DNA of 62,861 bases, from contig CANPVU010000003.1 in assembly GCA_947581765.1 (NCBI GenBank), positions 1-62,861 on the forward strand, in the 5' to 3' direction. Under the pieces are notes generated by a model. It ran no database searches and was not told where the DNA came from. It saw only the letters and a program-made list of their open reading frames with translations. The position numbers and the translations under genes are program-made. This document shows, one piece after another, positions 12,420 through 60,810 of the stretch (its first letter is position 1; the number at the start of each line of letters is the position of its first letter). This stretch comes from an uncultured Bacilli bacterium. Lineage in GTDB: Bacteria > Bacillota_I > Bacilli_A > RF39 > UBA660.

Positions 12420-13787
12420 ATGAAGAAGAAAATTAAATATTTATTGTTTATTGTATTATGTAATTTCTTTGCTGTAAATGTATATGCTTCAAGTGCAAGT
12501 ATCACTGCACATTCATCTTCAAGTAAAGTACAAGTAGGACAAACAGTAAAAGTTACTGTAACAGTATCTAGTTCTGCACCTTTAGGTAGTTGGGAATTTA
12601 ATGTAGGTTATGATAGTAAAGTACTTTCATATGTAAGTTCTAATTTAGAGGGTGGATTAAGTTCTGCTAATTATGTATTAAATTCAAATACAAAAAATAA
12701 GACATATACTTTGACATTTAAAGCTAAAGCAGAAGGAGTAGGAAAAGTAACTATAAATAATGCAGCAGTATGGGGATATGATGAGAATTCAATGTCAACA
12801 AGTGTTTCAAATGCTAGTATAACAGTTGAAACTGCACGTAAGACAAGTTCTAATAATAACAGTAATACAACAACTCCTAAGTCATCAAATAATTACTTAT
12901 CTACTCTTACAGTAGGGGATAAACAATTATCTCCAAAGTTTGATAAAAACACTACTAATTATAGTTTATCTTTAGAAAACAGTGAAAGAAATATAACTGT
13001 ATCAGCAACTGCAGAAGATAAAAAATCAACTGTTACAGGAACAGGAACTAAGACATTACAAGAGGGTAACAATAAGATAGAAATTACAGTTACTGCTGAA
13101 AATGGAAGTAAAAAAACATATACTATAAATGTAAATGTTAAAGAAAAAGACCCAGTAATTGTCAATGTAGATGGACAAGAGTATACTGTAGTACAAAAGC
13201 TCGATGAAGTAGAACCACCAACAACATATACTCCAACTACTACAGTAATTAATAATACAGAGGTACCAGCATTAAAAAGTAGTATAACAGACTATACTTT
13301 AGTAGCGCTTACATCACCAACTGGAAACACTAATTTATATATATATAGTGATGATACATATACGTTATATAAAGAATATAAATTTAGTGGTGTACTTTTA
13401 TATATAAAAGAACCTACTAAAGAGCAAATGATAAAAAAGACAAAGGAAACTACAATAACTGTAGATGGAGAAGAAGTAAAGGCATATAAGTTAAATAAGA
13501 ATACGTATCCTTTAGTATTTGGTTTAAATATTGAAACAGGAGAAGAAAACTGGTATACATATGATGAATCAGAAAAAACATTACAGAAATTTGTTTCTGG
13601 AAATGTAAATAGTGTATCTGATAGTATAGATGTATCAGCAAGTGATTCAATAAAAAATATATCTGTTGATAGTAAGTATAAAACATTATCTTACTTATTA
13701 TGTGGTATTGTATCAGTTTTATTTATATTCTTACTTGCATCTGCAATTAAATTATCAACTGTTAATAATTTTGTAAAGAAGAAATAA
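12420..13787 (+). CDS. Membrane-anchored cohesin-domain protein with cadherin-like module
   Basis: Signal peptide. Cohesin-like segment VGQTVKVTVTVSSSAPLGSWEFNVGYDSKVLSYVSS...TLTFKAKAEGVGKVTI. Cadherin-like LSTLTVGDKQLSPKF...TYTINVNVK. C-terminal TM helix LLCGIVSVLFIFLLASAI. Confidence 0.65.
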   Translation: MKKKIKYLLFIVLCNFFAVNVYASSASITAHSSSSKVQVGQTVKVTVTVSSSAPLGSWEFNVGYDSKVLSYVSSNLEGGLSSANYVLNSNTKNKTYTLTFKAKAEGVGKVTINNAAVWGYDENSMSTSVSNASITVETARKTSSNNNSNTTTPKSSNNYLSTLTVGDKQLSPKFDKNTTNYSLSLENSERNITVSATAEDKKSTVTGTGTKTLQEGNNKIEITVTAENGSKKTYTINVNVKEKDPVIVNVDGQEYTVVQKLDEVEPPTTYTPTTTVINNTEVPALKSSITDYTLVALTSPTGNTNLYIYSDDTYTLYKEYKFSGVLLYIKEPTKEQMIKKTKETTITVDGEEVKAYKLNKNTYPLVFGLNIETGEENWYTYDESEKTLQKFVSGNVNSVSDSIDVSASDSIKNISVDSKYKTLSYLLCGIVSVLFIFLLASAIKLSTVNNFVKKK

Positions 13788-13877
13788 TTATAATATCTCT
13801 TAATAATATTCATATTCTTGAATATCTATAAGAGATATTTTTTTTATAAAAAAAATCAAGATGAACTTGATTATATT

Positions 13878-14534
13878 TTACTTACTTGTTTTACAAGTTA
13901 AATTATTTAATTGTTTATTTTTAAAATCTTTATATGATGTAGTAATTGTATCATCTATTTCCTTTAATTTATTTAAATCAATATTTTTCATATTATATGT
14001 GAAAGTAACTACTACATTATTACTAATTGTTATTTCACTATATATATTGTTAATATCGGTATATTGTTTATCAAATCTATTAATTACATTTTCAGCTTCA
14101 GCTTTATCATTAATATCAAATGTATATATATATACTATTTTCTCTATATCGTTTCCTTTTTTAGTAATTTCTATTTTAGAGTTATTACTTATATCAGTAG
14201 AACCACTACATACAATATTATCTATTTTATTACTATTTTCATAATCACTAGGTTTTGGCATGACACTAATTATGGATGGTATAATTAGTATAAATATTAC
14301 TATGTAATTGCCAATAGCAAATATTATTGATTTTCTTCCCATTGTTATAGTTGAAAGACCTAGTAATATTATACCTACAAATATTAGTATAACTTTTAAT
14401 ATATTATTAAAAGTATCAAATTCATATCCATTCTTTATAAAGTTATATATAAATACAGTTAAATACACAATAGTTAAAATAAACATAGGAATTTTAAATA
14501 CTAATAAAAACTTATTATTTACAGCGCGCTTCAT
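13878..14534 (-). CDS. Membrane protein (three predicted TM helices plus extracytoplasmic domain), unknown function
   Basis: It is the longest ORF in this interval. The hydrophobic N-terminal half is plausible, whereas the overlapping + strand ORFs are low-complexity. Confidence 0.5.
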   Translation of the reverse strand: MKRAVNNKFLLVFKIPMFILTIVYLTVFIYNFIKNGYEFDTFNNILKVILIFVGIILLGLSTITMGRKSIIFAIGNYIVIFILIIPSIISVMPKPSDYENSNKIDNIVCSGSTDISNNSKIEITKKGNDIEKIVYIYTFDINDKAEAENVINRFDKQYTDINNIYSEITISNNVVVTFTYNMKNIDLNKLKEIDDTITTSYKDFKNKQLNNLTCKTSK

Positions 14535-14633
14535 ATTATCACCACCTCTATTATACTATATTTTGAATTATAAATAAATAAATCTTAGTAGTAAACATGT
14601 AAAAAATATGCTATTATATATATGGTGATTTGT

Positions 14634-15704
14634 ATGGAAAAGGAAATACTATCTAAAGTAATAGAACTTATTACTATTCCTTTTTTAGTAGTTGTTATAA
14701 TTACACCTTTGATAAAAAAAGTTGCGTATCATGTAAATGCGTTAGACATTCCAAATGAGCGTAAAGTTCATAAAGTACCAATTCCTAGATTAGGTGGATT
14801 AGGAATATTTATGGGGTTTTTAGTGGGATATATGATTTTTGGTGAACATACTGCACTTATGAATTCTATTTTAATAGGTAGTTTTATACTTATTATTACT
14901 GGAATGATTGATGATATAAATCCTCTAAAACCATTACCTAAATTTTTGGGTCAGTTTATATCGGCACTAGTTGTTTGCTTTTATGGTGGAATGTTAATTA
15001 AAGATATAGATGCATTTGGCATATATATAAATTTTGGATTTTTCGCTTATCCACTTACTATATTCTTTATATTAGGTTGTATTAATTGTATGAATTTTGT
15101 AGATGGATTAGATGGATTAGCTAGTGGAATATCATCAATTTTCTTTTTAACAATTGGTATAGTTGCTGCATGTAAGTGTCAACTTGATTTAGCTTTTATA
15201 CTTACATTTATAATGCTTGGATGTTGTTTAGGCTTTTTACTATATAATTTTCATCCGGCTAGTATATTTATGGGAGATAGTGGATCTATGTTTTTAGGAT
15301 TTATTATGTCTATTATAACTATGCTAGGATATAAGAATGTAATGACTTCATCTATGATTATTCCACTTTTATTACTTAGTGTTCCAATACTAGATACAAT
15401 ATTTGCTATATTAAGAAGAAAATTAAAGGGAGAAAGCATATCTAAACCAGATAAGTCACATATTCATCATCAATTTTTAAGAAGAGGTTTTTCCCAAATA
15501 GGTACAGTAATTACTATATATATTATTACAGGTTTGTTTGCAACTGCATCACTAATATATGTATTAGTTAATAATATTCTTGGATATATTATATATGGTA
15601 TATTATTAATTGGATTTATTGTATTTGCTTTAAAAACAGATATATTATTTAGTAAAGATAAGGATAAGGATAAAGATAAAAAAAAGAAAAAGATAGCTAA
15701 TTAA
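14634..15704 (+). CDS. tagO: Undecaprenyl-phosphate GlcNAc-1-phosphate transferase (MraY/WecA/TagO family, GT4)
   Basis: Motifs NERKVHKVPIPRLGG, IDDINPL, NFVDGLDGLA and FMGDSGSMFLGF. The start is moved to 14634 because the extended -10 at 14609-14617 places the transcription start after the track ATG at 14622. Confidence 0.85.
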   Translation: MEKEILSKVIELITIPFLVVVIITPLIKKVAYHVNALDIPNERKVHKVPIPRLGGLGIFMGFLVGYMIFGEHTALMNSILIGSFILIITGMIDDINPLKPLPKFLGQFISALVVCFYGGMLIKDIDAFGIYINFGFFAYPLTIFFILGCINCMNFVDGLDGLASGISSIFFLTIGIVAACKCQLDLAFILTFIMLGCCLGFLLYNFHPASIFMGDSGSMFLGFIMSIITMLGYKNVMTSSMIIPLLLLSVPILDTIFAILRRKLKGESISKPDKSHIHHQFLRRGFSQIGTVITIYIITGLFATASLIYVLVNNILGYIIYGILLIGFIVFALKTDILFSKDKDKDKDKKKKKIAN

Positions 15705-15732
15705 AATATAATAAAGAAGTAAGAGGTGTTTT

Positions 15733-18402
15733 ATGAAAGAAAAAATATTTTCGGTTATTATTCCTGTATACAATGTTGAAGAGTATTTAGAACAAACTGT
15801 AGAAAGTATTATTAATCAAACTGTTGGTTTTGAGAATATAGAGTTAATTTTAATAAATGATGGTTCTACTGATAATAGTGAAAAGATTTGCTTAGAGTAT
15901 AAGGATAAATATCCAGATAATGTTGTATATATTAAACAGGAAAATAAAGGAGTATCAGCAGCTAGAAATAATGCTTTAAAATATGTTAGTGGTAAATATG
16001 TAAATTTTTTAGATAGTGATGATATTTGGGATAATGATGCATTTGAAAAAGGATTAAAATTATTTGAACAAAATACTCAAATATGTGCAGTTATTTATCC
16101 ATTAAAATTTTTTGAAGCTTCAAATAAATATCATCCACTTCATTTTATGTTTAAAAATAAGAAAAATACCACTGTTAATATATTAGAAGATTATCAATAT
16201 ATTAAACTTTCATCATGTTCTACTATTTTTAAATCAGAAGTATTAAAGGGTAGAGAATTTAATACTAAATTAAAAATATCAGAAGATTGTAGACTCGTTA
16301 CCGAAATATTTTTAGATAATCCAAATATTGGAGTTGTATGTGATAGTAATTACAATTATAGAAAAAGACTTTCAAATTCTTCAACTATTCAAACATCATC
16401 TAGTAAAAGAACATGGTATATAGATACACCTGTACTTTGTCATAAATATATAGCAGATTTATCAAAAGAAAAATATGGAAAAGTAATAGATTATGTACAA
16501 TTTTTACTTGCATATGACCTTCATTGGAGAATGAATGAAAAAATAATAGATGATTTAACAGAAAAAGAGAAAAAAGATTATTTAGATATTATGCACTCTT
16601 TAGTAAGGGAAATAGATGATAAAATAATTATTGACTTTCCTGGTATGAATTTAATGCAAAAAATGTATATGTTAGCATTTAAATATGAAAATAAAAACAT
16701 ATTTGAAATAAAAGATGATTATTTTTATTGTAATGACAATGAATTTTATATGATTAATAATCTTTATTTAACTGTAGATAATATTGTATTAAATAATGAT
16801 TTTATAGATATATATGGTAGACAAATAGTTATTAATAATATACTTGATAAAGTATATGTAAAAACAGATTATGCAAATGTTAATTTTGAATATTATGAAT
16901 TGGATAAAAAACATGCAGATAAAGAAACTATTGATAATAAATATCGATATAGTATAAAAGGTATACATGCTAAAATAGATTTAAGTAAAACTAAAACATT
17001 TAATTTTATGTCTAAGACTAGCGATAAAGAATTTTTAATTAAAGCAATCTTCTCTTATAATTCAATATTAAATGATCATTTTTTCTCACTATATTTAAGA
17101 ACTGATAATTATTATTTAAAATATATAAAATCAAAACAAAGTTTTTATGTATATAAAAAAGGATTTAAAAATAGGGCATTATTAGAGTTAAAATGTGATT
17201 TTAATTTAATAAAGCGCTTTAAAATAAATAGTTTAATATATAGAATATGCGGTTATATATCTAAACTTATTCATAGAAAACCTATATGGTTAATTTCAGA
17301 TAGAATTCAAATTGCAAGGGATAATGGACAAGCTTTTTTTGAGTATTTAATAAATCAAAAAGATTTACCTGTAAAACCATATTTCATATTATCTAAGAAT
17401 GCTAATGATTATAAAGCATTAAAAGCAAAGTATAAAAGAAAATTATTATGTCATAATAGCTTTAGACATAAAATGTTACATTTAGCAGCATCAAAAATAA
17501 TATCTGCTCAAGCAGATAATTATGTTACAAATTTATTTGGAAATGGAAAGTATTATCTTGGTGATTTATATAATTTTGAATTTGTTTTTTTACAACATGG
17601 TATAACTAAGGATGATTTATCACCTTGGCTTAATATTAATAATAGAACTATAGATATGTTTGTTACAGCATCTTCATATGAATATAACTCATTTACATCA
17701 GGTGAATATAAATATAATTTTCCAAAAGAATGGATAAAATTAACTGGCTTTGCTAGATTTGATAAATTAATAGATGATAATGTAAAGAAAGAAAAAACAA
17801 TACTAATTATGCCTACTTGGCGAAATAATCTAGTTAGTTTACTAGATAAAAAAACTGGTGAAAGATTGTATGATTTAGCATTCAAAGAAACAGATTATTT
17901 TAAATATTATAATGAGTTAATAAATAATGAAAGATTATTAAAATATATTAGTAAAAAAGGGTATAAGATAAGATTTATACCACATGTTAATATGATGCAA
18001 CAAATTAGGGATTTTAAAACAAATGAATATGTTGAAATTGTTAGTACTTCAGTTAATTATACAGAAGAATTTCAAAAAAATAGTTTATTAATAACTGATT
18101 ATTCAAGTGTATTTTTTGATTTTTGTTATTTAAATAAACCAGTTATTTATTCACAATTTGATTCTGATACATTTTTTACAGGACAAGTTTATGATAAAGG
18201 ATATTTTTCATATGAAAAACATGGATTTGGTCCTATATGTAAAACGATTAATGAGACTGTAGATAATATTATTGAAATTATAGATAACGATTGCAAGTTG
18301 AATAAAAAATATAAAAATAAAATAGATAAATTTTACAAATATCATGATAAAAATAATTGTAAAAGAATATATGATGAAATAATAAATCTAGATAAAAAAT
18401 AG
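15733..18402 (+). CDS. Bifunctional GT2 glycosyltransferase / CDP-glycerol glycerophosphotransferase (TagF-like)
   Basis: N-terminal FSVIIPVYNVEEYL, INDGSTDNS, NKGVSAARN and LDSDD match GT2. C-terminal LQHGITKDD, PTWR and ITDYSSVFFDF match the TagB/TagF family. Confidence 0.85.
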   Translation: MKEKIFSVIIPVYNVEEYLEQTVESIINQTVGFENIELILINDGSTDNSEKICLEYKDKYPDNVVYIKQENKGVSAARNNALKYVSGKYVNFLDSDDIWDNDAFEKGLKLFEQNTQICAVIYPLKFFEASNKYHPLHFMFKNKKNTTVNILEDYQYIKLSSCSTIFKSEVLKGREFNTKLKISEDCRLVTEIFLDNPNIGVVCDSNYNYRKRLSNSSTIQTSSSKRTWYIDTPVLCHKYIADLSKEKYGKVIDYVQFLLAYDLHWRMNEKIIDDLTEKEKKDYLDIMHSLVREIDDKIIIDFPGMNLMQKMYMLAFKYENKNIFEIKDDYFYCNDNEFYMINNLYLTVDNIVLNNDFIDIYGRQIVINNILDKVYVKTDYANVNFEYYELDKKHADKETIDNKYRYSIKGIHAKIDLSKTKTFNFMSKTSDKEFLIKAIFSYNSILNDHFFSLYLRTDNYYLKYIKSKQSFYVYKKGFKNRALLELKCDFNLIKRFKINSLIYRICGYISKLIHRKPIWLISDRIQIARDNGQAFFEYLINQKDLPVKPYFILSKNANDYKALKAKYKRKLLCHNSFRHKMLHLAASKIISAQADNYVTNLFGNGKYYLGDLYNFEFVFLQHGITKDDLSPWLNINNRTIDMFVTASSYEYNSFTSGEYKYNFPKEWIKLTGFARFDKLIDDNVKKEKTILIMPTWRNNLVSLLDKKTGERLYDLAFKETDYFKYYNELINNERLLKYISKKGYKIRFIPHVNMMQQIRDFKTNEYVEIVSTSVNYTEEFQKNSLLITDYSSVFFDFCYLNKPVIYSQFDSDTFFTGQVYDKGYFSYEKHGFGPICKTINETVDNIIEIIDNDCKLNKKYKNKIDKFYKYHDKNNCKRIYDEIINLDKK

Positions 18403-18476
18403 TTAGTTATTGTAAAAGATTATTCGGTTTGATATACTTAAGATAAAGTTTACAGTATAGAAAAGAGTGTGTTATT

Positions 18477-19472
18477 GTGAAAAAAAATATTATTGATATT
18501 GAAACTGCCAAAGATTTATTAAAAATAAAAAAAACTATTCTTTATTTAGTTATTCCTTGCTACAATGAAGAAGATGTTCTACCTATAACTACTAAGGCTT
18601 TAGATGAGAAGATGAATGATTTAATAAAAAATAAGAAAATATCTTCTAAAAGTAAAGTTTTATATGTAGATGATGGTTCTAAAGATAATACATGGAATTT
18701 GATAGAAAAGATACATAGTGAAAACGAGTTGTTTTGTGGTGTAAAGTTATCAAGAAATAAAGGACATCAAAATGCACTATTAGCTGGTTTAATGAGTGCT
18801 AAAGGACATAGTGATATAACTATAAGTATGGATGCTGATTTACAAGACGATATTGGTGTTATTGATAAAATGTTAGAAGAATATGAAAACGGCTCTAAGA
18901 TTGTATATGGGGTTAGAAGTTCAAGAAAAAAAGATACATTTTTTAAAAAATTTACTGCAGAAGGCTTTTATAAATTTATGCATTTAATGGGAGTAGAAAT
19001 AGTGTTTAATCATGCTGATTGTAGACTTATGAGTAAAGAAGCTCTTGATGCTTTAGAGAAGTTTAATGAAGTTAATTTATTCTTAAGAGGTATTGTTCCT
19101 CAAATAGGTTATAAAACTTCTATAGTTTATTATGAAAGAAATGAACGTGCTGCTGGAAAATCAAAATATCCATTAAAGAAAATGTTAAAATTTGCTATAG
19201 AAGGAATAACATCATTTAGTGTTGTACCACTTAAAATGATTACATCTATAGGATTTATTATGTTTTTAATTAGTTTTTTAGTAATTATATATTCAATAAT
19301 TGTAAAAATTTTAGGACAAACTGTATCAGGGTGGACATTTATTGTTTCATCAATTTGGTTAGTATCAAGTATTCAGATGTTGTCCTTAGGAATAATTGGT
19401 GAGTATATTGGAAAAATATATCAAGAAACAAAAAGAAGACCAAAATATATAATTGAGAAGGAATTAATGTAA
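18477..19472 (+). CDS. Polyisoprenyl-phosphate glycosyltransferase (GT2, CsbB/GtrB-like)
   Basis: VIPCYNEE, VDDGSKDNT, RNKGHQNAL and DADLQD motifs plus two C-terminal TM helices. Confidence 0.85.
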   Translation: MKKNIIDIETAKDLLKIKKTILYLVIPCYNEEDVLPITTKALDEKMNDLIKNKKISSKSKVLYVDDGSKDNTWNLIEKIHSENELFCGVKLSRNKGHQNALLAGLMSAKGHSDITISMDADLQDDIGVIDKMLEEYENGSKIVYGVRSSRKKDTFFKKFTAEGFYKFMHLMGVEIVFNHADCRLMSKEALDALEKFNEVNLFLRGIVPQIGYKTSIVYYERNERAAGKSKYPLKKMLKFAIEGITSFSVVPLKMITSIGFIMFLISFLVIIYSIIVKILGQTVSGWTFIVSSIWLVSSIQMLSLGIIGEYIGKIYQETKRRPKYIIEKELM

Positions 19473-19891
19473 TGAGATTTTTTGAAATATATAAAAAATA
19501 TAAAGAAGGTATCAATTATTTAATATTTGGAGGATTAACTACTTTATTATCTTTAGCAACATATTACATTTTAACATTAACATTCTTAAATCCTAAACAT
19601 GCTATTGAACTTCAAATAGCAAACATACTATCTTGGATTGTTGGTTTTCTTTTTGCATATTTTACAAATAGAAAATATGTATTTGAAAGTAAAAATACTA
19701 AATCAAAAGAAGAATTTTTTAAATTTTTTTTATCTAGAATATTTACATTAATATTAGATATGTTAATAATGTTTATATTTGTTACATTACTTCATTTAAA
19801 TAATAAATTAATGAAAATTATATCTCAAGTTATGGTTATTGTATTCAACTATATACTTAGTAAATTTGTTGTATTTAAAAATAATAATTAG
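19472..19891 (+). CDS. GtrA-family membrane protein
   Basis: Four TM helices with NYLIFGGLTTL...FAYFTNRKYVF...NYILSKFVVF, typical of GtrA. TAATG overlap with the csbB-like gene. Confidence 0.85.
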   Translation: MRFFEIYKKYKEGINYLIFGGLTTLLSLATYYILTLTFLNPKHAIELQIANILSWIVGFLFAYFTNRKYVFESKNTKSKEEFFKFFLSRIFTLILDMLIMFIFVTLLHLNNKLMKIISQVMVIVFNYILSKFVVFKNNN

Positions 19892-19940
19892 ATAATTAAT
19901 ATAAAATATAAGAATAAATTTATGATTGGGGCGATTAATA

Positions 19941-21641
19941 ATGAAATATTTATACAACTTGACAGTAATAGTACCATGTTATAATTGCTGTAAATATGTA
20001 AAAAAAACAATTAATTCATTATTAGAACAAGATTATGATTTACAAAAAATTGAAATTTTATTAATCAATGATGGTTCAACAGATAATACACTAAAAATAA
20101 TAAAAAAATATGAATCTAAAAATATAAAAGTTGTAGATAAGAAAAACGAAGGGGTAAGTGCTACTAGAAATCTTGGAATGAAAATGTCAAAAGGAAAGTA
20201 TATTTTATTTTTAGATTCAGATGATTATTTATCTCGTAATACTATACGAGATATAATCAATTTTTTTGATGCTCATTATGATGAAATAGATTTATTAACA
20301 TACCCAATGTTATATTTTTATCCAAGCGGAAGAACGATGAGGCATTCTAGATATAAGAAACTTTATATAAATGGAACGAATGTTTATGATTTAGATGAAT
20401 TTTATTATCTTATTCAACCAACACTTAATGTTTGTATTAAAAATGGATTAGGATATGAATTTGATGTTAACCAGTATTATGCTGAAGATGAAATGTTTAA
20501 TATAAAAATTTTAATGAATAAAAAGAAAATAGGGTTTGTTAAGGAAGGATTATATTATTATAGAAGACATAATGAAAGTACCACTGCAAATCGTTATCAT
20601 ATGAATTTAGAAAATATATATAGTTTTTATGAAAAATATCAACAAATATATAAAAATGATAAATATATACAAGCAACAATAATGAATAATCTAAATTGGC
20701 GTATACGTGAGGATTGCTTAATTCCTCCTGATAAAGAAAGTATTAATTCATGTATAGAAAGTATAAGAAGAAAACTAAGTATTATAGATTTTAGTTTGTT
20801 TAAAGACCATGTACTAGATAACAAGAAAGTTTTATTAGAATTACTTTCTTTAAGTCAAAAAAAATGTATAATGGAAAAATATGATGATAAGTATTCATTA
20901 ATAAGTGATGGTAAAGTTTTAATAAATAATATAGATACTACGAATATAAATATTCGTTTAAATAGAATTTGTAAAGAAAAGGATAATATTACTTTATATG
21001 GATACCTTATTACTCCTTTATTTTATACAGGAAAAATAAAATTATTTTCAAAAATAGAATATAGAAATGGTAAATGTGAAACAAAAAAAATAGATTTATA
21101 CAATATACTAGATTATCAAGAAAACTATAAAAAAGAGTATAAATTATGTTTAAAATGCGATAAAATAAGTGAAATATCATTTTATTGTGAATTAGAAAAA
21201 GAAAAAATATTATTGGATATAAAACCAATTGATTGGTGTAGTAAAGTCAAAATTTATGATGATTCTATAGTAGAAATTAATAATAATATTAAAATTTATA
21301 AGAAAAAATTGTTTGATAAATTTAAAACTAGATTTTTTTACTCCTCAAATAAATTTAAATTTAAATTGATTAACCTTGTATCCTTTATAACTAGAAAAGG
21401 TTCAAAATATCATGTGTACTTTGGTGATAAAAATTCTTTAATTTATCAAGAATATATAGACGATAAAAATCATAAGAAGTTATTTTATGATAGGGCATTT
21501 GGAACAAATTATAAATTTGTAATATTAAATTGTGATAAGATAATCACTAATAAAAGTATTAAATTAGTTTTACCTTTTGGTAAAATGAGAAAAAATTATG
21601 TACAAGCAAGTCATTTTGAAATAATATTAAAAGATAATTAA
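19941..21641 (+). CDS. GT2 glycosyltransferase with uncharacterised C-terminal domain
   Basis: LTVIVPCYNC, INDGSTDNT, NEGVSATRN and LDSDD motifs. The ATG at 19941 is preferred over the TTG at 19926. Confidence 0.8.
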   Translation: MKYLYNLTVIVPCYNCCKYVKKTINSLLEQDYDLQKIEILLINDGSTDNTLKIIKKYESKNIKVVDKKNEGVSATRNLGMKMSKGKYILFLDSDDYLSRNTIRDIINFFDAHYDEIDLLTYPMLYFYPSGRTMRHSRYKKLYINGTNVYDLDEFYYLIQPTLNVCIKNGLGYEFDVNQYYAEDEMFNIKILMNKKKIGFVKEGLYYYRRHNESTTANRYHMNLENIYSFYEKYQQIYKNDKYIQATIMNNLNWRIREDCLIPPDKESINSCIESIRRKLSIIDFSLFKDHVLDNKKVLLELLSLSQKKCIMEKYDDKYSLISDGKVLINNIDTTNINIRLNRICKEKDNITLYGYLITPLFYTGKIKLFSKIEYRNGKCETKKIDLYNILDYQENYKKEYKLCLKCDKISEISFYCELEKEKILLDIKPIDWCSKVKIYDDSIVEINNNIKIYKKKLFDKFKTRFFYSSNKFKFKLINLVSFITRKGSKYHVYFGDKNSLIYQEYIDDKNHKKLFYDRAFGTNYKFVILNCDKIITNKSIKLVLPFGKMRKNYVQASHFEIILKDN

Positions 21642-50672: not shown

Positions 50673-52034
50673 ATGAATAATTTAGAAAATAATTATTATG
50701 CAAAATGGATTACTACAGAAGAATTAGTAAAAAATAAAAAAATATTAGAGATAGGACTTCAAGATACTATACAAACAATGGGATTACCTATTGGAAGTAA
50801 TAAAGATAAAATAGTAGTTGATACATCATTAGATAGTACACTTGTTATAGCAGGTGCAGGAAGTGGAAAAACACAATGTTCAATATTACCTATGCTATAT
50901 CAAGCTGCAAATAGTGGTGAATCTGTATTAATAACAGATAAGACAAAAGAATTATATCAAACAACAGCATCATTATATAAAAATAATGGATATAATGTAA
51001 TTAATATAAATCTTAATAACACTAATATAGGTAATTGTATAAATATATTTGAATTACCAAAAAAATTATATGATAATAAGAAATATGATGAAGCATATTA
51101 TATTACTAAAAAAATATTTTCATATATATTAAAAGAAGAAAATAAAAATGTAGATCCTTTTTGGTCTAATACTGCATCTGATTATATTACTGGTGTAACA
51201 ATGAGTTTATATGATAAAAATATACCATTAAGCCAAATTAACTTTAAAACAATATCTAAATTCTCATCAGAATATAATAGTGAAGAAGTTATAAACTATT
51301 TAGAATCTATAGAAAAAGATAGTATTGCATATAAAAATATTTGTGGTACTTTTCTAGCACCATCAGAAACTAAAGCATCTATAATATCAGTATTAAATGA
51401 AAAATTATCTACTATATATAGTAAAGAAAATTTAGTAGCACTTTTAAGTAAAAGTGATTTTAATATAGAAAATATAAGAGATGAAAAAACTATATTATAT
51501 ATTTCATATGATGAATCTGATTTATTACAATCTGCATTATTTGATATTATATTTGAAGAAGTATATTTTATTGTAAATAGTAAAAAGGGTGAAAAAGCAT
51601 TTAATTTTATTATAGATAATATGGATTATAATGTTAAACCAATTGATAATTTAACTAGTATAATAAATAATTGTAGAAATAATTATATTAGATTTATTAT
51701 GTATATAAGTGGTTTTGATACATTATCTAAAATATATGGGGAAAGTAATGTAGGAACATTAAAGTATGAATTTTCTAATATATTATATTATATATCTAAT
51801 GAATTAAATACTATAAATTTTATATCTGAATATTGTGGTAAAAAGAGTGATACTTCATATTTAGTTAGTCCAGAAATGTTAAGAAGGATGCCAATGTTTA
51901 GTAGTATTTTACTAAAATCTAGAGTAATGCCATATTATTGTGTGCAAGTTCCTTTTTATGAAATGAATATTAATATAGAAAAAACAAATTTAAATGAAAA
52001 TAATTTACCTAATGTAGATGTAATTAATTTATAA
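50673..52034 (+). CDS. Soluble VirD4/TraG-like (type IV coupling protein family) P-loop protein, orphan
   Basis: Walker A LVIAGAGSGKTQCSILPML, VLITDKTKELY, DPFWSNTASDY, and R..YIRFIMYISGFDTLSKIYGE parallel T4CP blocks. There is no N-terminal TM helix. The Walker B position reads FIIDNMDY. Confidence 0.55.
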   Translation: MNNLENNYYAKWITTEELVKNKKILEIGLQDTIQTMGLPIGSNKDKIVVDTSLDSTLVIAGAGSGKTQCSILPMLYQAANSGESVLITDKTKELYQTTASLYKNNGYNVININLNNTNIGNCINIFELPKKLYDNKKYDEAYYITKKIFSYILKEENKNVDPFWSNTASDYITGVTMSLYDKNIPLSQINFKTISKFSSEYNSEEVINYLESIEKDSIAYKNICGTFLAPSETKASIISVLNEKLSTIYSKENLVALLSKSDFNIENIRDEKTILYISYDESDLLQSALFDIIFEEVYFIVNSKKGEKAFNFIIDNMDYNVKPIDNLTSIINNCRNNYIRFIMYISGFDTLSKIYGESNVGTLKYEFSNILYYISNELNTINFISEYCGKKSDTSYLVSPEMLRRMPMFSSILLKSRVMPYYCVQVPFYEMNINIEKTNLNENNLPNVDVINL

Positions 52035-52046
52035 AGAGGGGATATT

Positions 52047-52496
52047 TTGAATGAAAATGTAGTTCTAGATTTAATAAAATATATTGAAGATAATTTACAT
52101 GAAAATTTGAAAGTAGATAGTTTATCCAAAATATTTCATTATGATAGGGTATATTTAAGTAAATCATTTAAAAAAATAACAGGTATATCAATAAATGAAT
52201 ATATTAATGAAAGAAAAATAATAAAAAGTATACCAAGTGTTGTAAATACTGATGAAAAGATACTTAAAATTGCTTTAGAATCAGGATATAATTCATTAGA
52301 ATATTTTTCTGAAACATTTTATAGAGTAACTAGTTTTAGTCCAGTATCTTTAAGAACAAATGAAAAAATAAAAGAAATATTACCATTTGATATTTATAAT
52401 AATTGGATTGAAAATTTAAAAAATAATCATGAAAAAATATTAAAAATTAGAACTTTAGAAAGACCAAAAGTAAAAACAATTGGTAGATATAAATAA
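52047..52496 (+). CDS. Small AraC/XylS-family transcriptional regulator (DNA-binding domain only)
   Basis: Two HTH units (LSKIFHYDRVYLSKSFKKITGISINEYINERKI and ALESGYNSLEYFSETFYRVTSFSP). It starts 12 nt after the upstream gene. Confidence 0.75.
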   Translation: MNENVVLDLIKYIEDNLHENLKVDSLSKIFHYDRVYLSKSFKKITGISINEYINERKIIKSIPSVVNTDEKILKIALESGYNSLEYFSETFYRVTSFSPVSLRTNEKIKEILPFDIYNNWIENLKNNHEKILKIRTLERPKVKTIGRYK

Positions 52497-54965: not shown

Positions 54966-54994
54966 TTGACAAGGAGAGTAGTTTAAAGTATAAT
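54966..54994 (+). promoter_or_regulatory. Consensus sigma-A promoter of the tRNA-Gly gene
   Basis: TTGACA (54966-54971), exactly 17 nt, TATAAT (54989-54994). Confidence 0.7.
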
Positions 54995-55032: not shown

Positions 55033-55106
55033 GCGGGTGTAGTTCAATGGTAGAACTCCAGCCTTCCAAGCTGATAACGTGGGTCCGATTCCCATCACCC
55101 GCTCCA
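55033..55106 (+). tRNA. tRNA-Gly (anticodon UCC), encoded CCA, with non-canonical T-loop
   Basis: Hand-folded cloverleaf: acceptor GCGGGTG/CACCCGC, D arm GTTC-AATGGTA-GAAC, anticodon arm CCAGC-CTTCCAA-GCTGA, T arm GTGGG-TCCGATT-CCCAT, then T-CCA. There is a C27-A43 mismatch, and C replaces the near-universal U55. Confidence 0.8.
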
Positions 55107-55116
55107 TTTAAAGATT

Positions 55117-55147
55117 AAATCAGTCTTAATTTGACTGATTTTTTTTT
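55117..55147 (+). terminator. Rho-independent terminator of tRNA-Gly (inside direct repeat copy 1)
   Basis: Stem aaatcagtc (55117-55125) pairs with gactgattt (55133-55141) around loop ttaattt. The T-run extends to 55147. Confidence 0.7.
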
Positions 55148-55156
55148 GTGCTAAAA

Positions 55157-55181
55157 CGGACCCACGTTATCAGTTTGGAAG
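55157..55181 (-). other. Inverted 25-nt copy of the tRNA-Gly anticodon-loop to T-loop segment
   Basis: cggacccacgttatcagtttggaag is the reverse complement of tRNA positions 55063-55087, matching 24 of 25 nt. Confidence 0.9.
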
Positions 55182-55251
55182 TGATAAAGTATATCCATTT
55201 TGACTCTTCTTTTTTAATACTAATTTCTTTAATCTTATTATTAATTTTTAT
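55170..55251 (-). pseudogene. Remnant of a second copy of the 259-aa nuclease gene (3-prime end joined out of frame to an internal fragment)
   Basis: Positions 55170-55215 equal the last codons of the intact gene (KKKSQNGYTLSLPN*). Positions 55221-55251 encode IKINNKIKEISIKK, against IKINNKIKGISIKK in the intact gene (57341-57385), matching 26 of 31 nt. The junction falls at a shared c-tttttt-aatac microhomology. Confidence 0.45.
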
Positions 55252-55268
55252 CCTCCACTCTTCTTCTT

Positions 55269-56552
55269 TTATTTATTATCTTCATTGTTCTCATCATCAT
55301 TAATATCATTATTAAAATAATTAGGAAAATCAAACTTTGGTAATTCTATTTCTGGTAAAACTATATTGGGTAAATCAAAGTTTGGCATTTTAACCTTCGG
55401 AATCATATTAGCTATGTTTGGTATCATTTTAGAAACAGGATTTACAATTTCATTTAATTTTTCACTAAATTCTTTTAATGGTTGAGTAACTAAATTTATG
55501 TTTTCTAAAATTGGTTTAACTGTTTCTCTCATTGTCTTTGCAAGTCGTTCAAAAGATTCCTGTTGTAATTCAATATTTTTGTATACAAAATCTTTTTCTT
55601 CAGTAATTTTAATTGCTATATCTAATGATTTATTTGTTTTCTTTAAAATCTCCAAACAATTTTTGTATTGAGTTTCACTTATAAATTTGCAATGTGCTAT
55701 ATTATTTCTGAAAACTCTAATGTCATTAAAAATTATTTGAAAATCGTCTGCAATTTTTTTATCACCAAAAAATCGCTCCCAATCAGATTTATAATTACAT
55801 AATTCAAAAGCTTTTCTTATTTCAGAATCACTCAACTTACTCAAATCTTTGTTTTCCTTTAGAAAATTTTGCAACTTTATCGTTTCTTGTGGAGTTATTG
55901 ACTTAGAAAACAATAATGTTTCAATATCATGATAATCAAGTGAATAAAATCCTAACTTTATATAGCAATCTTTTTTAGAAATTGTTTGATTCTTTTGACT
56001 ACTGGCTTTTTGTTTTAGATTTGCTTGAAAATCTTCACTGGTAGTTGCAGAATAATATTCTAAATTAAAATTTAAAGTATATACAACAAAAAGTATTTTT
56101 CTTAACTTTCTTTCAAATTCATTAAGATATGGAAATAATTTATTGCAGTAATATTCAGAAACATAATCATAAGATAATATAGATATAAAATCTTGTTCAA
56201 AAACACTTTTACTATTTATTAATTTAGAATTTACTAAATTCAAAATATTAACAGCATCTTGCTTATTTTTGGTTTTAACTATTATATCTAAATAATAATT
56301 AGACCATACATTATGATATTTAAAAAAAACTTCTTTTTGCGTATTATTGTAATCAATTTTAAATGCTCCTGTTTTAATAAAGATAAATTCCTCATCTCTA
56401 TTATCAAAATTAATTTCGTGAAAACATTTTTTTAATAATTGCTCAAATGATGGAGGCAAAGATACGACAATTCGATTTTCTTTTGAATTTTTCTTGAATT
56501 TATTTTTTTCTTTTTCTCTTTTAAGAAATATATAACTGTTTTTAAATTTCAT
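55269..56552 (-). CDS. HEPN-domain protein (Swt1-like/Abi-type), candidate abortive-infection RNase
   Basis: NEFERKLRKIL helix, followed about 140 aa later by FRNNIAHCKF (the R-x4-H HEPN signature). It has its own AGGAGG RBS and promoter. The C-terminal tail carries short P(N/K)(I/F) repeats. Confidence 0.6.
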   Translation of the reverse strand: MKFKNSYIFLKREKEKNKFKKNSKENRIVVSLPPSFEQLLKKCFHEINFDNRDEEFIFIKTGAFKIDYNNTQKEVFFKYHNVWSNYYLDIIVKTKNKQDAVNILNLVNSKLINSKSVFEQDFISILSYDYVSEYYCNKLFPYLNEFERKLRKILFVVYTLNFNLEYYSATTSEDFQANLKQKASSQKNQTISKKDCYIKLGFYSLDYHDIETLLFSKSITPQETIKLQNFLKENKDLSKLSDSEIRKAFELCNYKSDWERFFGDKKIADDFQIIFNDIRVFRNNIAHCKFISETQYKNCLEILKKTNKSLDIAIKITEEKDFVYKNIELQQESFERLAKTMRETVKPILENINLVTQPLKEFSEKLNEIVNPVSKMIPNIANMIPKVKMPNFDLPNIVLPEIELPKFDFPNYFNNDINDDENNEDNK

Positions 56553-56578
56553 TATTACCTCCTAATTCTCTTGGTATA

Positions 56579-56607
56579 ATTATATCATTTCGTAAGAAAT
56601 GTCACAA
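56579..56607 (-). promoter_or_regulatory. Promoter of the HEPN gene
   Basis: On the minus strand: TTGTGA (56602-56607), 17 nt, TATAAT (56579-56584), preceded by TGA (extended -10). Confidence 0.5.
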
Positions 56608-56711
56608 GAAATTTAAAAAATATTGTGTTTAAGTTAAAAATCGGTTATATATGATTTATCAGGCGGTTATGAATTTTATGTTTGCTAAGTGTTTATAACT
56701 TAACAAGCAAT

Positions 56712-56832
56712 CGCTCCATTTAAAGATTAAATCAGTCTTAATTTGACTGATTTTTTTTGTGCTAAAACGGACCCACGTTATCAGTTTGGAAGTGATAAAG
56801 TATATCCATTTTGACTCTTCTTTTTTAAATAC
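56712..56832. repeat. Direct repeat copy 2 (121 bp)
   Basis: See copy 1. It includes cgctcca, the terminator hairpin (56729-56758), the inverted tRNA fragment (56768-56792) and the last 17 codons of the nuclease gene. Confidence 0.9.
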
Positions 56833-57560
56833 ATATTTTCTATAATATCATCAAAGAGATTATACCACTTTACTTGTATGCAAAATCGATCTTTTTCATA
56901 TTTACTATTATAATTTAAACATCTGTTTTTAGGTTGAATAGTAAGTACACTAAAATGAACAGTTGATGAATAGTTATCTTTTTTACTTAAGATAATATTA
57001 ATAATATCTTCTTTTGTTATAAAAACAAAATCATTTACTTCTCCATAAACTAAAGCAGAAATAGAAAAAACCGAATTATTACCTCGAAGGATAAATCTAT
57101 CAATAGCTTTTATTAATAATTTTTGATTATTTATTTCACTATTAATCTTATCAATTTTATCTTGATTTTTAACTTTATATTCCTCAGTTGATACTCTTTT
57201 TAAACCTTTGCCGTTAGTAGTACCATCTGCATAGTGAAACTTTAAATACTCTATTATATTATCACGTGATATATTATTAGTTATTAAAAAATTAATAAAT
57301 TCCGTAATTGGTTCAACATGTACAGAGTTCCTAATTCCTTTTTTAATACTAATCCCTTTAATTTTATTATTTATTTTAATTAAAATATCAGTTTTTTGTT
57401 TTAAGTGATTACGCCAACACTTAATTATTGAATTTTCATTTTCATTTGGAAAAATTGTTTCTATTAAATCTCTGCATAGAGGAGTCAATTCCTTAATAAC
57501 TTTATTATTTAATTCTAAAACGAAAGCAAATTCATTATCAAATCCGTTTATTTCACTCAT
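56781..57560 (-). CDS. PD-(D/E)xK-type endonuclease, MspI/HinP1I-like restriction-enzyme candidate
   Basis: KTDILIKINNKIKGISIKKG fits a D-x13-S-x-K catalytic core. C-terminal LTIQPKNR...FCIQVKWYNLFD recalls the HinP1I/MspI family blocks (from memory, not aligned). AGGAGGTGA RBS. Confidence 0.5.
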   Translation of the reverse strand: MSEINGFDNEFAFVLELNNKVIKELTPLCRDLIETIFPNENENSIIKCWRNHLKQKTDILIKINNKIKGISIKKGIRNSVHVEPITEFINFLITNNISRDNIIEYLKFHYADGTTNGKGLKRVSTEEYKVKNQDKIDKINSEINNQKLLIKAIDRFILRGNNSVFSISALVYGEVNDFVFITKEDIINIILSKKDNYSSTVHFSVLTIQPKNRCLNYNSKYEKDRFCIQVKWYNLFDDIIENMYLKKKSQNGYTLSLPN

Positions 57561-58739: not shown

Positions 58740-59381
58740 ATGGAAAATGAAGTAAATCAATCTTTAAAATATTGGAATAATTTACATTCAAATTATGATA
58801 GAAGTGATATAAAATATGATGATTGGTTAGAAAAATTTCAAGAAATAATTGATGCATGTAAAACACCAATTTTAGATTTAGGGTGTGGAAGTGGTAATGA
58901 TACATTATATTTAATAAACAAAGGAAAAAAAGTTATACCTTGTGATCAATCAGAGAATGCTATAAAAAATATAAAGAAAAATTTTCCTGAAATTTTCGAT
59001 TGTAAATGCTTCAATATGTTAGAAGGGTTCCCATTTCCTGATAATTATTGTGATTTAATAATCTCAGATTTATGTTTACACTATTTTAGAGAAAAAGATA
59101 CATTTAAAATAATAAATGAAATTAGAAGAATACTTAAAGATAATGGACACTTAATTTTTAGATTGAATTCTATAAATGATATTAACCATGGCGCAGGTTC
59201 TGGTAGTGAGATTGAACATCACTTATATACTACACAAGATAATAGACTTAAAAGATTTTTTGATGAGAAGGATATATTATATTTCTTTAAAGATTTTCAA
59301 ATTGAATATTTAAAGGAAGAAACAATGTCAAGATATAAGTTAGAAAAAAGATTATATTTAGGATGCATAAAAAAATATTGA
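58740..59381 (+). CDS. Class I SAM-dependent methyltransferase (small-molecule type)
   Basis: Motif I ILDLGCGSGNDTLYL, an acidic residue after beta-2 (IPCDQS), and DLIISDLCLHY. At 213 aa it has none of the DNA-methyltransferase motifs. Confidence 0.75.
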   Translation: MENEVNQSLKYWNNLHSNYDRSDIKYDDWLEKFQEIIDACKTPILDLGCGSGNDTLYLINKGKKVIPCDQSENAIKNIKKNFPEIFDCKCFNMLEGFPFPDNYCDLIISDLCLHYFREKDTFKIINEIRRILKDNGHLIFRLNSINDINHGAGSGSEIEHHLYTTQDNRLKRFFDEKDILYFFKDFQIEYLKEETMSRYKLEKRLYLGCIKKY

Positions 59382-60380: not shown

Positions 60381-60810
60381 GAAATAAGTGAGGAGGGTTG
60401 TGATGAAACCAATATTGCAGGAAATAGTGAAGATATTGAAGACTTTGCCAAAAATGAATAGAGATTATGGAATTGGAATAATAAACCCTCTAGATACAGA
60501 GGAACAAGCATTGAAAATGCTAAACTACTTGAAAGAGAACAGAGACAATCCAGAATTAATGAGAATAGACAGATTAATGAAAAAGGCATTCGAAATAAGT
60601 GAGGAGGGTTGTGATGAAACCAATATTGCAGGAAATAGTGAAGATATTGAAGACTTTGCCAAAAATGAATAGAGATTATGGAATTGGAATAATAAACCCT
60701 TTAGAAACAGAGGAACAAGCATTGAAAATGCTAAACTACTTGAAATAGAACAGAGACAATCCAGAATTAATGAGAATAGACAGATTAATGAAAAAGGCAT
60801 TCGAAATAAG
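60381..60810 (+). repeat. Tandem duplication, 2 x 211 bp plus 8-bp third copy of the junction (gaaataag)
   Basis: Unit 1 is 60381-60591 and unit 2 is 60592-60802, with three mismatches. gaaataag recurs at 60381, 60592 and 60803. Confidence 0.9.
60403..60672 (+). CDS. Small protein (89 aa) whose C-terminus is a frameshifted read into the duplicated unit
   Basis: AGGAGGG RBS at 60391-60397. MKPILQEIVKILKTLPKMNRDYGIGIINPLDTEEQALKMLNYLKENRDNPELMRIDRLMKKAFEI, then 25 residues from reading unit 2 out of frame (211 is not a multiple of 3). Confidence 0.55.
   Translation: MKPILQEIVKILKTLPKMNRDYGIGIINPLDTEEQALKMLNYLKENRDNPELMRIDRLMKKAFEISEEGCDETNIAGNSEDIEDFAKNE

Follow-up and report, generated by a model that had tools for sequence, protein, structure and literature searches.

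In the 62.9-kb stretch of DNA considered here, the whole of which is called the window, two co-oriented open reading frames (ORFs) on the reverse strand encode a 427-aa HEPN protein (55269-56552) and a 259-aa nuclease of restriction-enzyme type (56781-57560), with a gap of 228 nt between them. An earlier note on this DNA, which comes from an uncultured Bacilli bacterium, had proposed the two genes as a candidate defence islet. We read them with high confidence as two unrelated single-gene units, which have become adjacent through the integration of a mobile element, the nuclease gene being a resident of the chromosome and the HEPN gene a piece of stranded cargo. The locus falls within positions 55033 to 57560, in DNA with a GC content of ∼23% and without a compositional break, and includes a tRNA-Gly gene with the anticodon UCC (Table 1).

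Relationship of the two genes

The distribution of the two families has been followed separately. For the nuclease, one genome per GTDB species has been scanned and 80 loci have been kept for neighbourhood counts (L012-L091), and for the HEPN protein 66 loci have been counted, of which 39 have a length of 6 kb or more. No HEPN relative has been observed within 10 kb of the nuclease in any of these 80 other species, nor has a nuclease relative been observed in any of the 66 HEPN loci. The co-occurrence that a two-gene defence system would be expected to leave behind, and that the earlier note had named as a check on its claim, is thus missing.

The arrangement of the locus has been found to be that of an insertion. 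The HEPN gene lies in a 1494-nt cassette between two copies of a direct repeat, which are identical apart from one T in a T-run. The repeat starts inside the tRNA gene, of which it takes in the final 7 nt, ends with the last 16 codons and the stop of the nuclease ORF, and also contains the terminator hairpin of the tRNA and an inverted tRNA-like segment. If one repeat copy is deleted together with the cassette, the empty nuclease/tRNA junction that is seen in 47 other species is restored. The HEPN gene has a promoter of its own inside the cassette, and the second copy of the terminator hairpin lies between the two genes; the terminator scan has returned two sites, with 0.3 expected.

Four further assemblies of the same species (L008, L009, L097, and L098), whose DNA is ∼99% identical, add a difference in the HEPN gene itself. 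In three of them, L008, L097, and L098 (independent assemblies, ∼5x coverage), a run of six A residues in place of seven shifts the HEPN frame at about codon 16, and the protein has been called as just 396 aa in all four, in which the nuclease is identical. The difference between the A6 and A7 runs may reflect phase variation or decay, or may have arisen as an artefact of sequencing. Taking together the lack of co-occurrence, the separate promoter, the intervening terminator, the insertion, and the frameshift, we conclude that the genes are very probably not a pair, and regulation by its neighbour, which the earlier note had considered, is excluded as the reason why the orphan nuclease is tolerated.

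Table 1. Features of the nuclease/tRNA-Gly locus, in coordinates of the window.
Feature	Position	Strand	Basis or remark
Sigma-70 promoter of tRNA-Gly, perfect	54966-54994		promoter scan
tRNA-Gly (anticodon UCC), encoded CCA	55033-55106	+	ARAGORN; integration target; its last 7 nt (CGCTCCA) open the direct repeat
Direct repeat copy 1, tRNA-proximal, 118 nt	55100-55217	.	repeat search
Intrinsic terminator hairpin of tRNA-Gly	55117-55141	+	duplicated in the gap between the two protein genes (56729-56753)
Inverted copy of tRNA-Gly positions ∼32-59 (anticodon loop to T-loop)	55154-55181	.	93% complementary
Nuclease-family catalytic-core relic, reads IKINNKIKEISIKK	55209-55251	-	flanked by repeat copy 1 and the stop codon of the HEPN gene
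Inserted cassette, 1494 nt (HEPN promoter, HEPN gene, nuclease relic)	55218-56711	-	no recombinase
427-aa Swt1/Abi2-type HEPN protein	55269-56552	-	homologues, motifs, PF18731 in family
HEPN motif R282-x4-H287 (RNNIAH, residues 282-287)	55692-55709	-	
HEPN motif E147-x2-L-R151	56100-56114	-	in NEFERKLRKIL, residues 144-154
A7 homopolymer, HEPN codons 15-17	56503-56509	-	A6 in three sister-strain assemblies
HEPN promoter, TTGTGA-17-TATAAT, upstream TG (extended -10)	56579-56607	-	scan, 10/12 matches; inside the cassette
Direct repeat copy 2, 117 nt	56712-56828	.	gives the intact nuclease ORF its 3' end
259-aa HinP1I-fold PD-(D/E)xK nuclease, orphan	56781-57560	-	PADLOC, AF2, Foldseek, conservation
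Putative active site of the nuclease: E10, D58, S71-x-K73	57387-57389 (D58); 57342-57350 (S71-x-K73)		

The nuclease and the probable sparing of its host

The 259-aa protein matches the type II restriction-endonuclease model of PADLOC (PDLC03402, the generic REase_II) at E 4e-14. An AlphaFold2 (AF2) model built from 36 homologues (pLDDT 86.6, pTM 0.82) has been compared with the PDB by Foldseek, and the top two matches are HinP1I entries, 2fkc_A being the best (E 1.6e-9 and 9e-7). Both extend over the full length (259 aligned columns) with a probability of 1.0 and TM-scores of 0.58-0.61, and the next matches, the Holliday-junction resolvases Hjc and RecU, have been found at E > 0.04. The predicted structure supports a fold of the HinP1I/MspI type, and the resemblance to these monomeric enzymes that had been suspected from the sequence has been borne out in this way. 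In sequence searches the family has remained blank: no Pfam family is matched at E up to 1, NCBIfam has returned noise only and PHROG nothing meaningful, phmmer and profile searches against PDB chains have given no match, and no Pfam family has been matched by the distant and the long relatives either.

The core of the putative active site had been described earlier as D-x13-S-x-K. It is real and conserved, and its spacing is of 12 residues rather than 13 (D58-x12-S71-x-K73), so that the pattern of the family reads (S/T)D-x12-S-x-K plus an N-terminal Glu. Across 187 distinct sequences, E10, D58, and S71 have been kept in 186 and K73 in all 187, and the AF2 model places the catalytic residues on the strands β2 and β3. 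The family also has an invariant C-terminal polar block (H202, Q209, R213, R225, Q229, K231, and W232). Pairwise dN/dS values have a median of 0.22 and range from 0.08 to 0.36; the gene is under purifying selection and is functional rather than a relic in decay, and inactivity of the product is unlikely.

In HinP1I the active site reads SD-x18-QxK. HinP1I, MspI, and HhaI have been described as a structural group of monomeric enzymes, with SD-x11-EAK as the site of HhaI (PMC7026639). The nuclease shares with them the HinP1I fold over its full length, a similar size (∼250 aa), and an active-site pattern of the same type. It differs from them in the lack of detectable sequence similarity to PDB chains and of a Pfam match, in the lack of an adjacent cytosine-5 (C5) methylase, in a host that does not avoid GCGC, and in a vertical inheritance at a fixed locus, where those enzymes are sporadic. 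Its relatives, 47-86% identical, have been found in at least 127 species, which are all uncultured low-GC gut Bacilli and have been labelled variously as Bacilli, Tenericutes, Mollicutes, or Clostridium sp. CAG:451. In 47 of the 80 loci, the nuclease gene is followed by tRNA-Gly(tcc) at a distance of at most 300 nt, the two genes being convergent in 41 of those 47, and the recurrent neighbours are housekeeping genes only, namely clusters of 86-, 146-, and 438-aa proteins (in 21, 19, and 13 loci) that match SpoVS, NifU, and SufB genes. We read the nuclease gene as a resident chromosomal gene of this clade, fixed convergently beside tRNA-Gly(UCC).

The search for a cognate methyltransferase (MTase) has covered the window and, in the 80 loci, flanks of 10 kb for C5 enzymes and of 6 kb for the amino-MTase motif. 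A DNA methyltransferase is absent from the whole window, in which tblastn with a C5 MTase has given no match and the only (D/N/S)PP(Y/F/W) motif is that of an RsmD-like rRNA methylase at ∼10056. An S-adenosylmethionine (SAM) methyltransferase encoded at 58740-59381, 1.2 kb away, has been considered as the cognate enzyme and rejected, as it is of the TehB/Methyltransf_11 small-molecule type and has no DNA-MTase motifs. No ORF within 6 kb of the nuclease carries the amino-MTase motif in any of the 80 loci. For C5 MTases the 10-kb flanks have yielded just two cases, and in the other 78 species no DNA methylase has been found in the flanks searched. The nuclease is a true orphan without a linked methylase; the earlier statement that no DNA methyltransferase lies within several kb can be extended to the whole window and to 78 of the 80 species. 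The nuclease coexists with an acquired M.HhaI-type methylase in sister strains, and this enzyme has been rejected as its partner, since the M.HhaI orthologue is paired with an R.HhaI homologue of its own, both of them on a different mobile element that is absent from the window.

Site avoidance has likewise been rejected as a means of self-protection. GCGC, the HinP1I site, occurs 17 times in the window and is enriched over the 6.8 sites expected; the ratios of observed to expected counts (O/E) are 2.5 for GCGC and 0.94 for CCGG in the window and 0.93 and 0.96 over the pooled clade loci, and CGCG and GGCC are also not depleted in the window. The under-representation of short GC-rich palindromes, which the earlier note had proposed to look for, is not found for these four sites in the window, nor for GCGC and CCGG in the pooled clade loci. 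The most depleted four-letter palindromes, in the window and in L012-L091, are GATC, with an O/E of 0.37 in the window and of 0.48 in the 1.1 Mb of pooled clade loci, and CATG, with 0.64-0.68. Such a depletion of GATC and CATG is common in Firmicutes and is not attributable to the nuclease. Six-letter palindromes with a depletion are GAATTC (0.56) and GGGCCC (0.16).

The ancestry of the nuclease has been traced by an exhaustive profile search of the family, which has yielded 750 representative clusters. Among them are proteins of 500-820 aa in which the domain is repeated in tandem, two or three times, and these long relatives match PDLC03402 end to end. Two-domain relatives (516-545 aa; L162, L163, and L164), all annotated as hypothetical, lie in restriction-modification (R-M) operons beside C5 methylases in each of the three contexts examined, and the methylases are either a fused double enzyme of 668-679 aa or separate proteins of 318 aa and 361 aa, with two C5 domains or genes each. 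Two C5 methylase domains or genes per system are a pattern typical of asymmetric-site systems, and the pairing suggests asymmetric sites for the two-domain relatives as well. MhoVII (PMC12898733) has been considered as a characterised relative of these enzymes and set aside, as it uses N6-methyladenine (6mA) methylases and not C5 ones. Because the two-domain relatives lie in C5 R-M operons, the 259-aa clade is read as a derived offshoot of a family of genuine restriction enzymes, an offshoot that lacks the methylase and is inherited vertically; the nuclease would have descended from type II enzymes paired with C5 methylases, and the linked methylase would have been lost.

The nuclease probably still works as a DNA endonuclease and leaves the chromosome of its host uncut. 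The route of sparing that we favour would be a dependence on a modification or substrate that is absent from the host, or a non-classical role, and an unlinked methylase is less favoured. We give an even chance to an enzyme that needs no methylase, being modification-dependent (type IIM or IV-like) or domesticated for a non-restriction role such as repair, recombination, or nucleic-acid turnover. The solitary, vertical, and syntenic conservation under purifying selection, the GCGC sites that the host does not avoid, and the toleration of the acquired M.HhaI-type methylase in the sister strains all fit such an enzyme, and a changed function has been proposed for solitary HpaII-like restriction enzymes of Bacteroides (PMC3488263). 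It is opposed by the lack of detected sequence similarity to known methyl-directed enzymes, by the blank Pfam, NCBIfam, and PHROG searches, and by HinP1I, the closest solved structure, which cuts unmodified DNA.

Clearly less probable, and in our view rather doubtful, is a type II enzyme of a separated R-M system, the cognate methylase of which, probably a C5 enzyme, would be encoded elsewhere in the genome. Separated systems have been documented, with 57 predicted by Ershova et al. (PMC3488263), the two-domain relatives stand beside C5 methylases in all three contexts, the catalytic residues of the nuclease are intact, and the depletion of GATC and CATG would fit a long-term restriction pressure. 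The lack of an MTase within 10 kb in 78 species argues against it, as does the clade-wide, syntenic, and vertical conservation with invariant putative recognition residues, which is rare for restriction enzymes. Solitary restriction endonucleases are a documented class, and separated R-M systems, changed function, and the absence of host sites have been advanced as explanations (PMC3488263). Like the HpaII-like orphans of Bacteroides and PacI, the nuclease is encoded by a full-length, apparently active type II-like gene without a linked methylase, which is conserved among related species and open to the same candidate explanations. It differs from them in a much broader distribution, in synteny at tRNA-Gly(UCC), and in its fold family, and an absence of sites is not supported for GCGC.

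A further feature of the nuclease locus is the inverted tRNA-like segment, which is located just past the tRNA-Gly terminator and comprises the anticodon loop, the variable region, and the T-stem. Its second copy (56765-56792) overlaps the stop codon of the nuclease gene. The segment is present in most species, ∼36-42 nt beyond the tRNA-Gly gene (L013, L017-L020, L022, L039, and others), and it co-varies with the tRNA of its own species (median 11/14 matches vs 7/14 to the tRNAs of other species), the observed mean being reached in none of 5000 permutations. The segment might be an extended bidirectional terminator, an insulator, or a feature of the attachment site. Expression or termination of the nuclease gene may be linked to the convergent tRNA-Gly gene through this co-varying segment over its stop codon.

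The HEPN protein as probable element cargo

Membership of the 427-aa protein in the Swt1/Abi2-type HEPN family is supported at the level of the family. The protein has 361 homologues, the family spans 25-91% identity, and 41 members with 31-91% identity have been aligned. R151, N283, and H287 are invariant in this alignment and E147, R148, and R282 at least 90% conserved, and the HEPN strings are therefore not due to chance. PF18731 is matched by 32 of the 41 members at E up to 0.01, with 1e-6 as the best value, and many homologues carry a precomputed PF18731 annotation. One relative, P0174, which the 427-aa protein matches at E 1.4e-64, has been named 'Swt1 family HEPN domain-containing protein' by NCBI; the source names of other relatives are uninformative. 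The earlier assignment to HEPN, made from the two hallmark motifs, has thus held at the family level, through the PF18731 matches and the conserved R-x4-H.

The AF2 model of the protein (pLDDT 74.6) predicts an α/β domain at residues 1-129 and an all-helical region at 130-350, which contains both motifs and ends in a 58-residue helix. The tail (352-427) is Pro-rich and acidic and is predicted to be disordered, with pLDDT < 50 from residue 352. Sequence and profile searches of the PDB with this protein have returned coiled-coil noise only and PHROGs nothing meaningful, and distant HEPN relatives have given weak partial PADLOC matches to PDC-M34B (2e-6) and CARF-HEPN (1.5e-4).

Bacterial HEPN domains of the Abi2/Swt1 clade have been described as active RNases in defence contexts (PMC3710099). 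With these AbiD/AbiF-like proteins (Anantharaman et al. 2013) the 427-aa protein has in common a domain predicted to be all-alpha, the R-x4-H motif, the upstream helix with Glu and Arg, the PF18731 matches across its family, and a context of mobile elements and defence islands. It departs from them in a novel N-terminal α/β domain of ∼130 aa, in a long coiled-coil helix followed by the disordered Pro-rich acidic tail, in the lack of an Abi_2 (PF07751) match and of an MNT antitoxin, ATPase, or R-M partner, and in a family that is not contained in PADLOC 2.0. The protein would act as a stand-alone RNase with an R-x4-H site that forms at a dimer interface; the N-terminal domain or the tail may hold it off until a trigger such as phage infection leads to growth arrest of the abortive-infection type.

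Across the 66 HEPN loci, no conserved antitoxin or nucleotidyltransferase partner has been found, and the cassette contains no plausible small ORF. Neighbours that recur are confined to a serine recombinase and a helix-turn-helix (HTH) protein, and the commonest, a serine recombinase of ∼535 aa, has been counted in 12 loci; no partner gene is conserved. In L005 and L096, a large serine recombinase gene is directly followed by the HEPN homologue. A 64%-identical homologue in L092 opens the series of genes that begins at a TGGAGCG junction, and the genes after it encode, in this order, a 365-aa protein, a relaxase, TnpV, and a serine recombinase of 606 aa.

The nuclease/tRNA-Gly junction itself is occupied in eight other species, and the tRNA hotspot recognised in the earlier note is supported. 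In five of the eight, the insert encodes a serine recombinase and a relaxase, along with a protein of ∼90-117 aa adjacent to the tRNA; those of L063 and L071 additionally contain 365/366-aa and TnpV-like proteins. As distal cargo, L063 carries a CBASS cyclase (E 5e-92) with a 4TM effector (E 2e-55), and L071 carries PDC-S47 (E 3e-60). In the sister strain L097, an element at 12459-20340 holds an M.HhaI orthologue (E 4e-113) and an R.HhaI homologue (E 2e-35) as cargo, together with a 509-aa protein, ASCH, Mob_Pre, a 611-aa serine recombinase, and a 93-aa protein. It has been inserted precisely between the inner copy of the repeat and the tRNA, and the window lacks it; a second complete element between the HEPN cassette and tRNA-Gly shows tandem accretion at the tRNA.

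Mobilisable transposons of the Tn4451/Tn4453 type have been characterised by the large serine recombinase TnpX, TnpV, and Mob (PMC3158075). The sites of L063, L071, L092, and L097 resemble them in a serine recombinase of 500-640 aa, a 117-aa TnpV-like protein (PF14198 in L092), a relaxase, and accessory cargo at the far end. The elements considered here differ in targeting the 3' end of tRNA-Gly and in carrying defence cargo in place of resistance genes, and the window differs further in keeping the cargo end only, with an atypically long flanking repeat of 118 nt.

The cassette in the window is no intact element of this type, since recombinase, TnpV, and relaxase are absent from 55218-56711. 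Its left end abuts TGGAGCG, the sequence of the tRNA 3' end, and the same TGGAGC(G)-element junction has been observed in L092 and in the L097 element. Because the cassette begins right after TGGAGCG, it is read as the stranded cargo end of a Tn4451-like element. In such an element, which targets the 3' end of tRNA-Gly, the HEPN gene would have stood first at the left end. Only the cargo end of the element would be left in the window strain, enclosed by a duplicated 118-nt stretch that runs from the 3' end of the nuclease gene to that of the tRNA.

The short relic of a nuclease-family catalytic core next to repeat copy 1 is 88% identical to the corresponding part of the window's own gene (57338-57380). 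With the L043 homologue it shares 92.5% identity across 40 nt, and it is thus nearer to a foreign gene than to the resident one. Chance similarity has been rejected as its origin: just 0.1% of background 34-mers score as high, and the genes of other species match better. This closeness to the gene of another species indicates that a second, foreign copy of the nuclease gene was once present at the locus. Recombinase-free cargo between long repeats of nuclease-3'-end/spacer/tRNA-3'-end sequence has also been seen in L083 and L031, as 212-aa and 127-aa ORFs. The repeats of L083 (10484-10889 and 11855-12262) are ∼405 nt long and 83-94% identical, with a 103-aa partial duplicate of the nuclease, and those of L031 (1874-1985 and 2736-2847) are 112 nt long and 98% identical. 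The long repeats of the window, L083, and L031 and the foreign relic suggest either a joint transfer of cargo and flank through homologous recombination of the Campbell type or a deletion of the backbone.

An anti-phage role of the HEPN protein has to be weighed against that of an addiction or stabilisation toxin of the element, or of a functionless, decaying remnant in the window strain, to which we assign a minor share of the probability. The location at the end of a mobile element beside recombinases, the loss of the element backbone in the window, the poly-A frameshift in three sister assemblies, and the lack of phage-side or defence-model evidence in IMG/VR, PHROGs, and PADLOC would all be in line with it. 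Against it stand the lack of a conserved antitoxin-like partner, the intact window copy with its strong promoter, the conservation of the family across 25-91% identity with invariant catalytic residues, and the bona fide defence systems that occupy the same cargo slot elsewhere.

Two further features have been recorded elsewhere in the window. A lone gene for a type IV coupling protein of the VirD4/TraG type (50673-52496; PF02534, E 1e-31) adjoins an AraC-family regulator, and other conjugation genes are not visible nearby. A tandem duplication of ∼219 nt lies inside overlapping small ORFs at 60381-60810 and differs in copy number among the strains, with two copies in the window and in L097 and apparently one in L008 and L098. 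The HEPN protein gives a weak tblastn match to this region (E 0.003), which is probably spurious.

Weighing of the readings and significance

The nuclease may be a modification- or structure-dependent enzyme, inherited vertically in more than 100 reduced-genome species of gut Bacilli. That it is at once domesticated, self-sparing, and coupled to tRNA-Gly through the inverted segment, and that the HEPN protein is a new single-gene abortive-infection system carried as cargo, is offered tentatively, and we think it unlikely that every part of this combination is correct.

Several observations weigh against our reading of the locus. The 427-aa protein itself reaches PF18731 only at E 0.049 (14.3 bits, with a cutoff of 27.5), and a Foldseek search of the PDB and BFVD with its full-length model has given no significant match, with RnlA ranked 35th at E 0.45, so that the HEPN assignment rests on profile and motif evidence. 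In PADLOC-DB 2.0, a check named in the earlier note, no convincing match of the protein has been found, the best being a 2TM effector model at E 0.034 (the nuclease, as described, matches the generic REase_II only), and no relatives have been detected in IMG/VR. The 118-nt repeat and the missing backbone call for an extra step, because the repeats that flank serine-recombinase elements are normally just 2-15 bp long (PMC3158075). For the nuclease, an unlinked cognate methylase is possible, the methylase search having covered the window and flanks of at most 10 kb; for the relation of the two genes, read-through from the nuclease gene into the HEPN gene is possible, the hairpin having been called on the + strand only.

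By far the least probable reading is a single two-gene defence system in which the HEPN protein would regulate or complement the methylase-less nuclease: the genes are adjacent and co-oriented at a distance of 228 nt, HEPN domains are often embedded in R-M operons (PMC3710099), and the pair is present in every informative contig of the window species, and against this stand its absence from all other species examined, the repeat-bracketed insertion into an otherwise empty junction, the separate promoter with a terminator copy between the genes, and the frameshifted HEPN gene beside an unchanged nuclease.

Reading the locus as a resident nuclease with stranded HEPN cargo removes a false candidate, as adjacency at a tRNA hotspot does not by itself make a defence system. 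The orphan nuclease, clade-wide and catalytically intact by its conserved residues, presents a clean case for the domestication or self-sparing of a restriction enzyme. The HEPN family with its new N-terminal domain shares a cargo slot with CBASS, PDC-S47, and R-M systems and is thereby a candidate single-gene defence effector. The nuclease/tRNA-Gly(UCC) junction of uncultured gut Bacilli is an integration hotspot that could be mined for further defence cargo.

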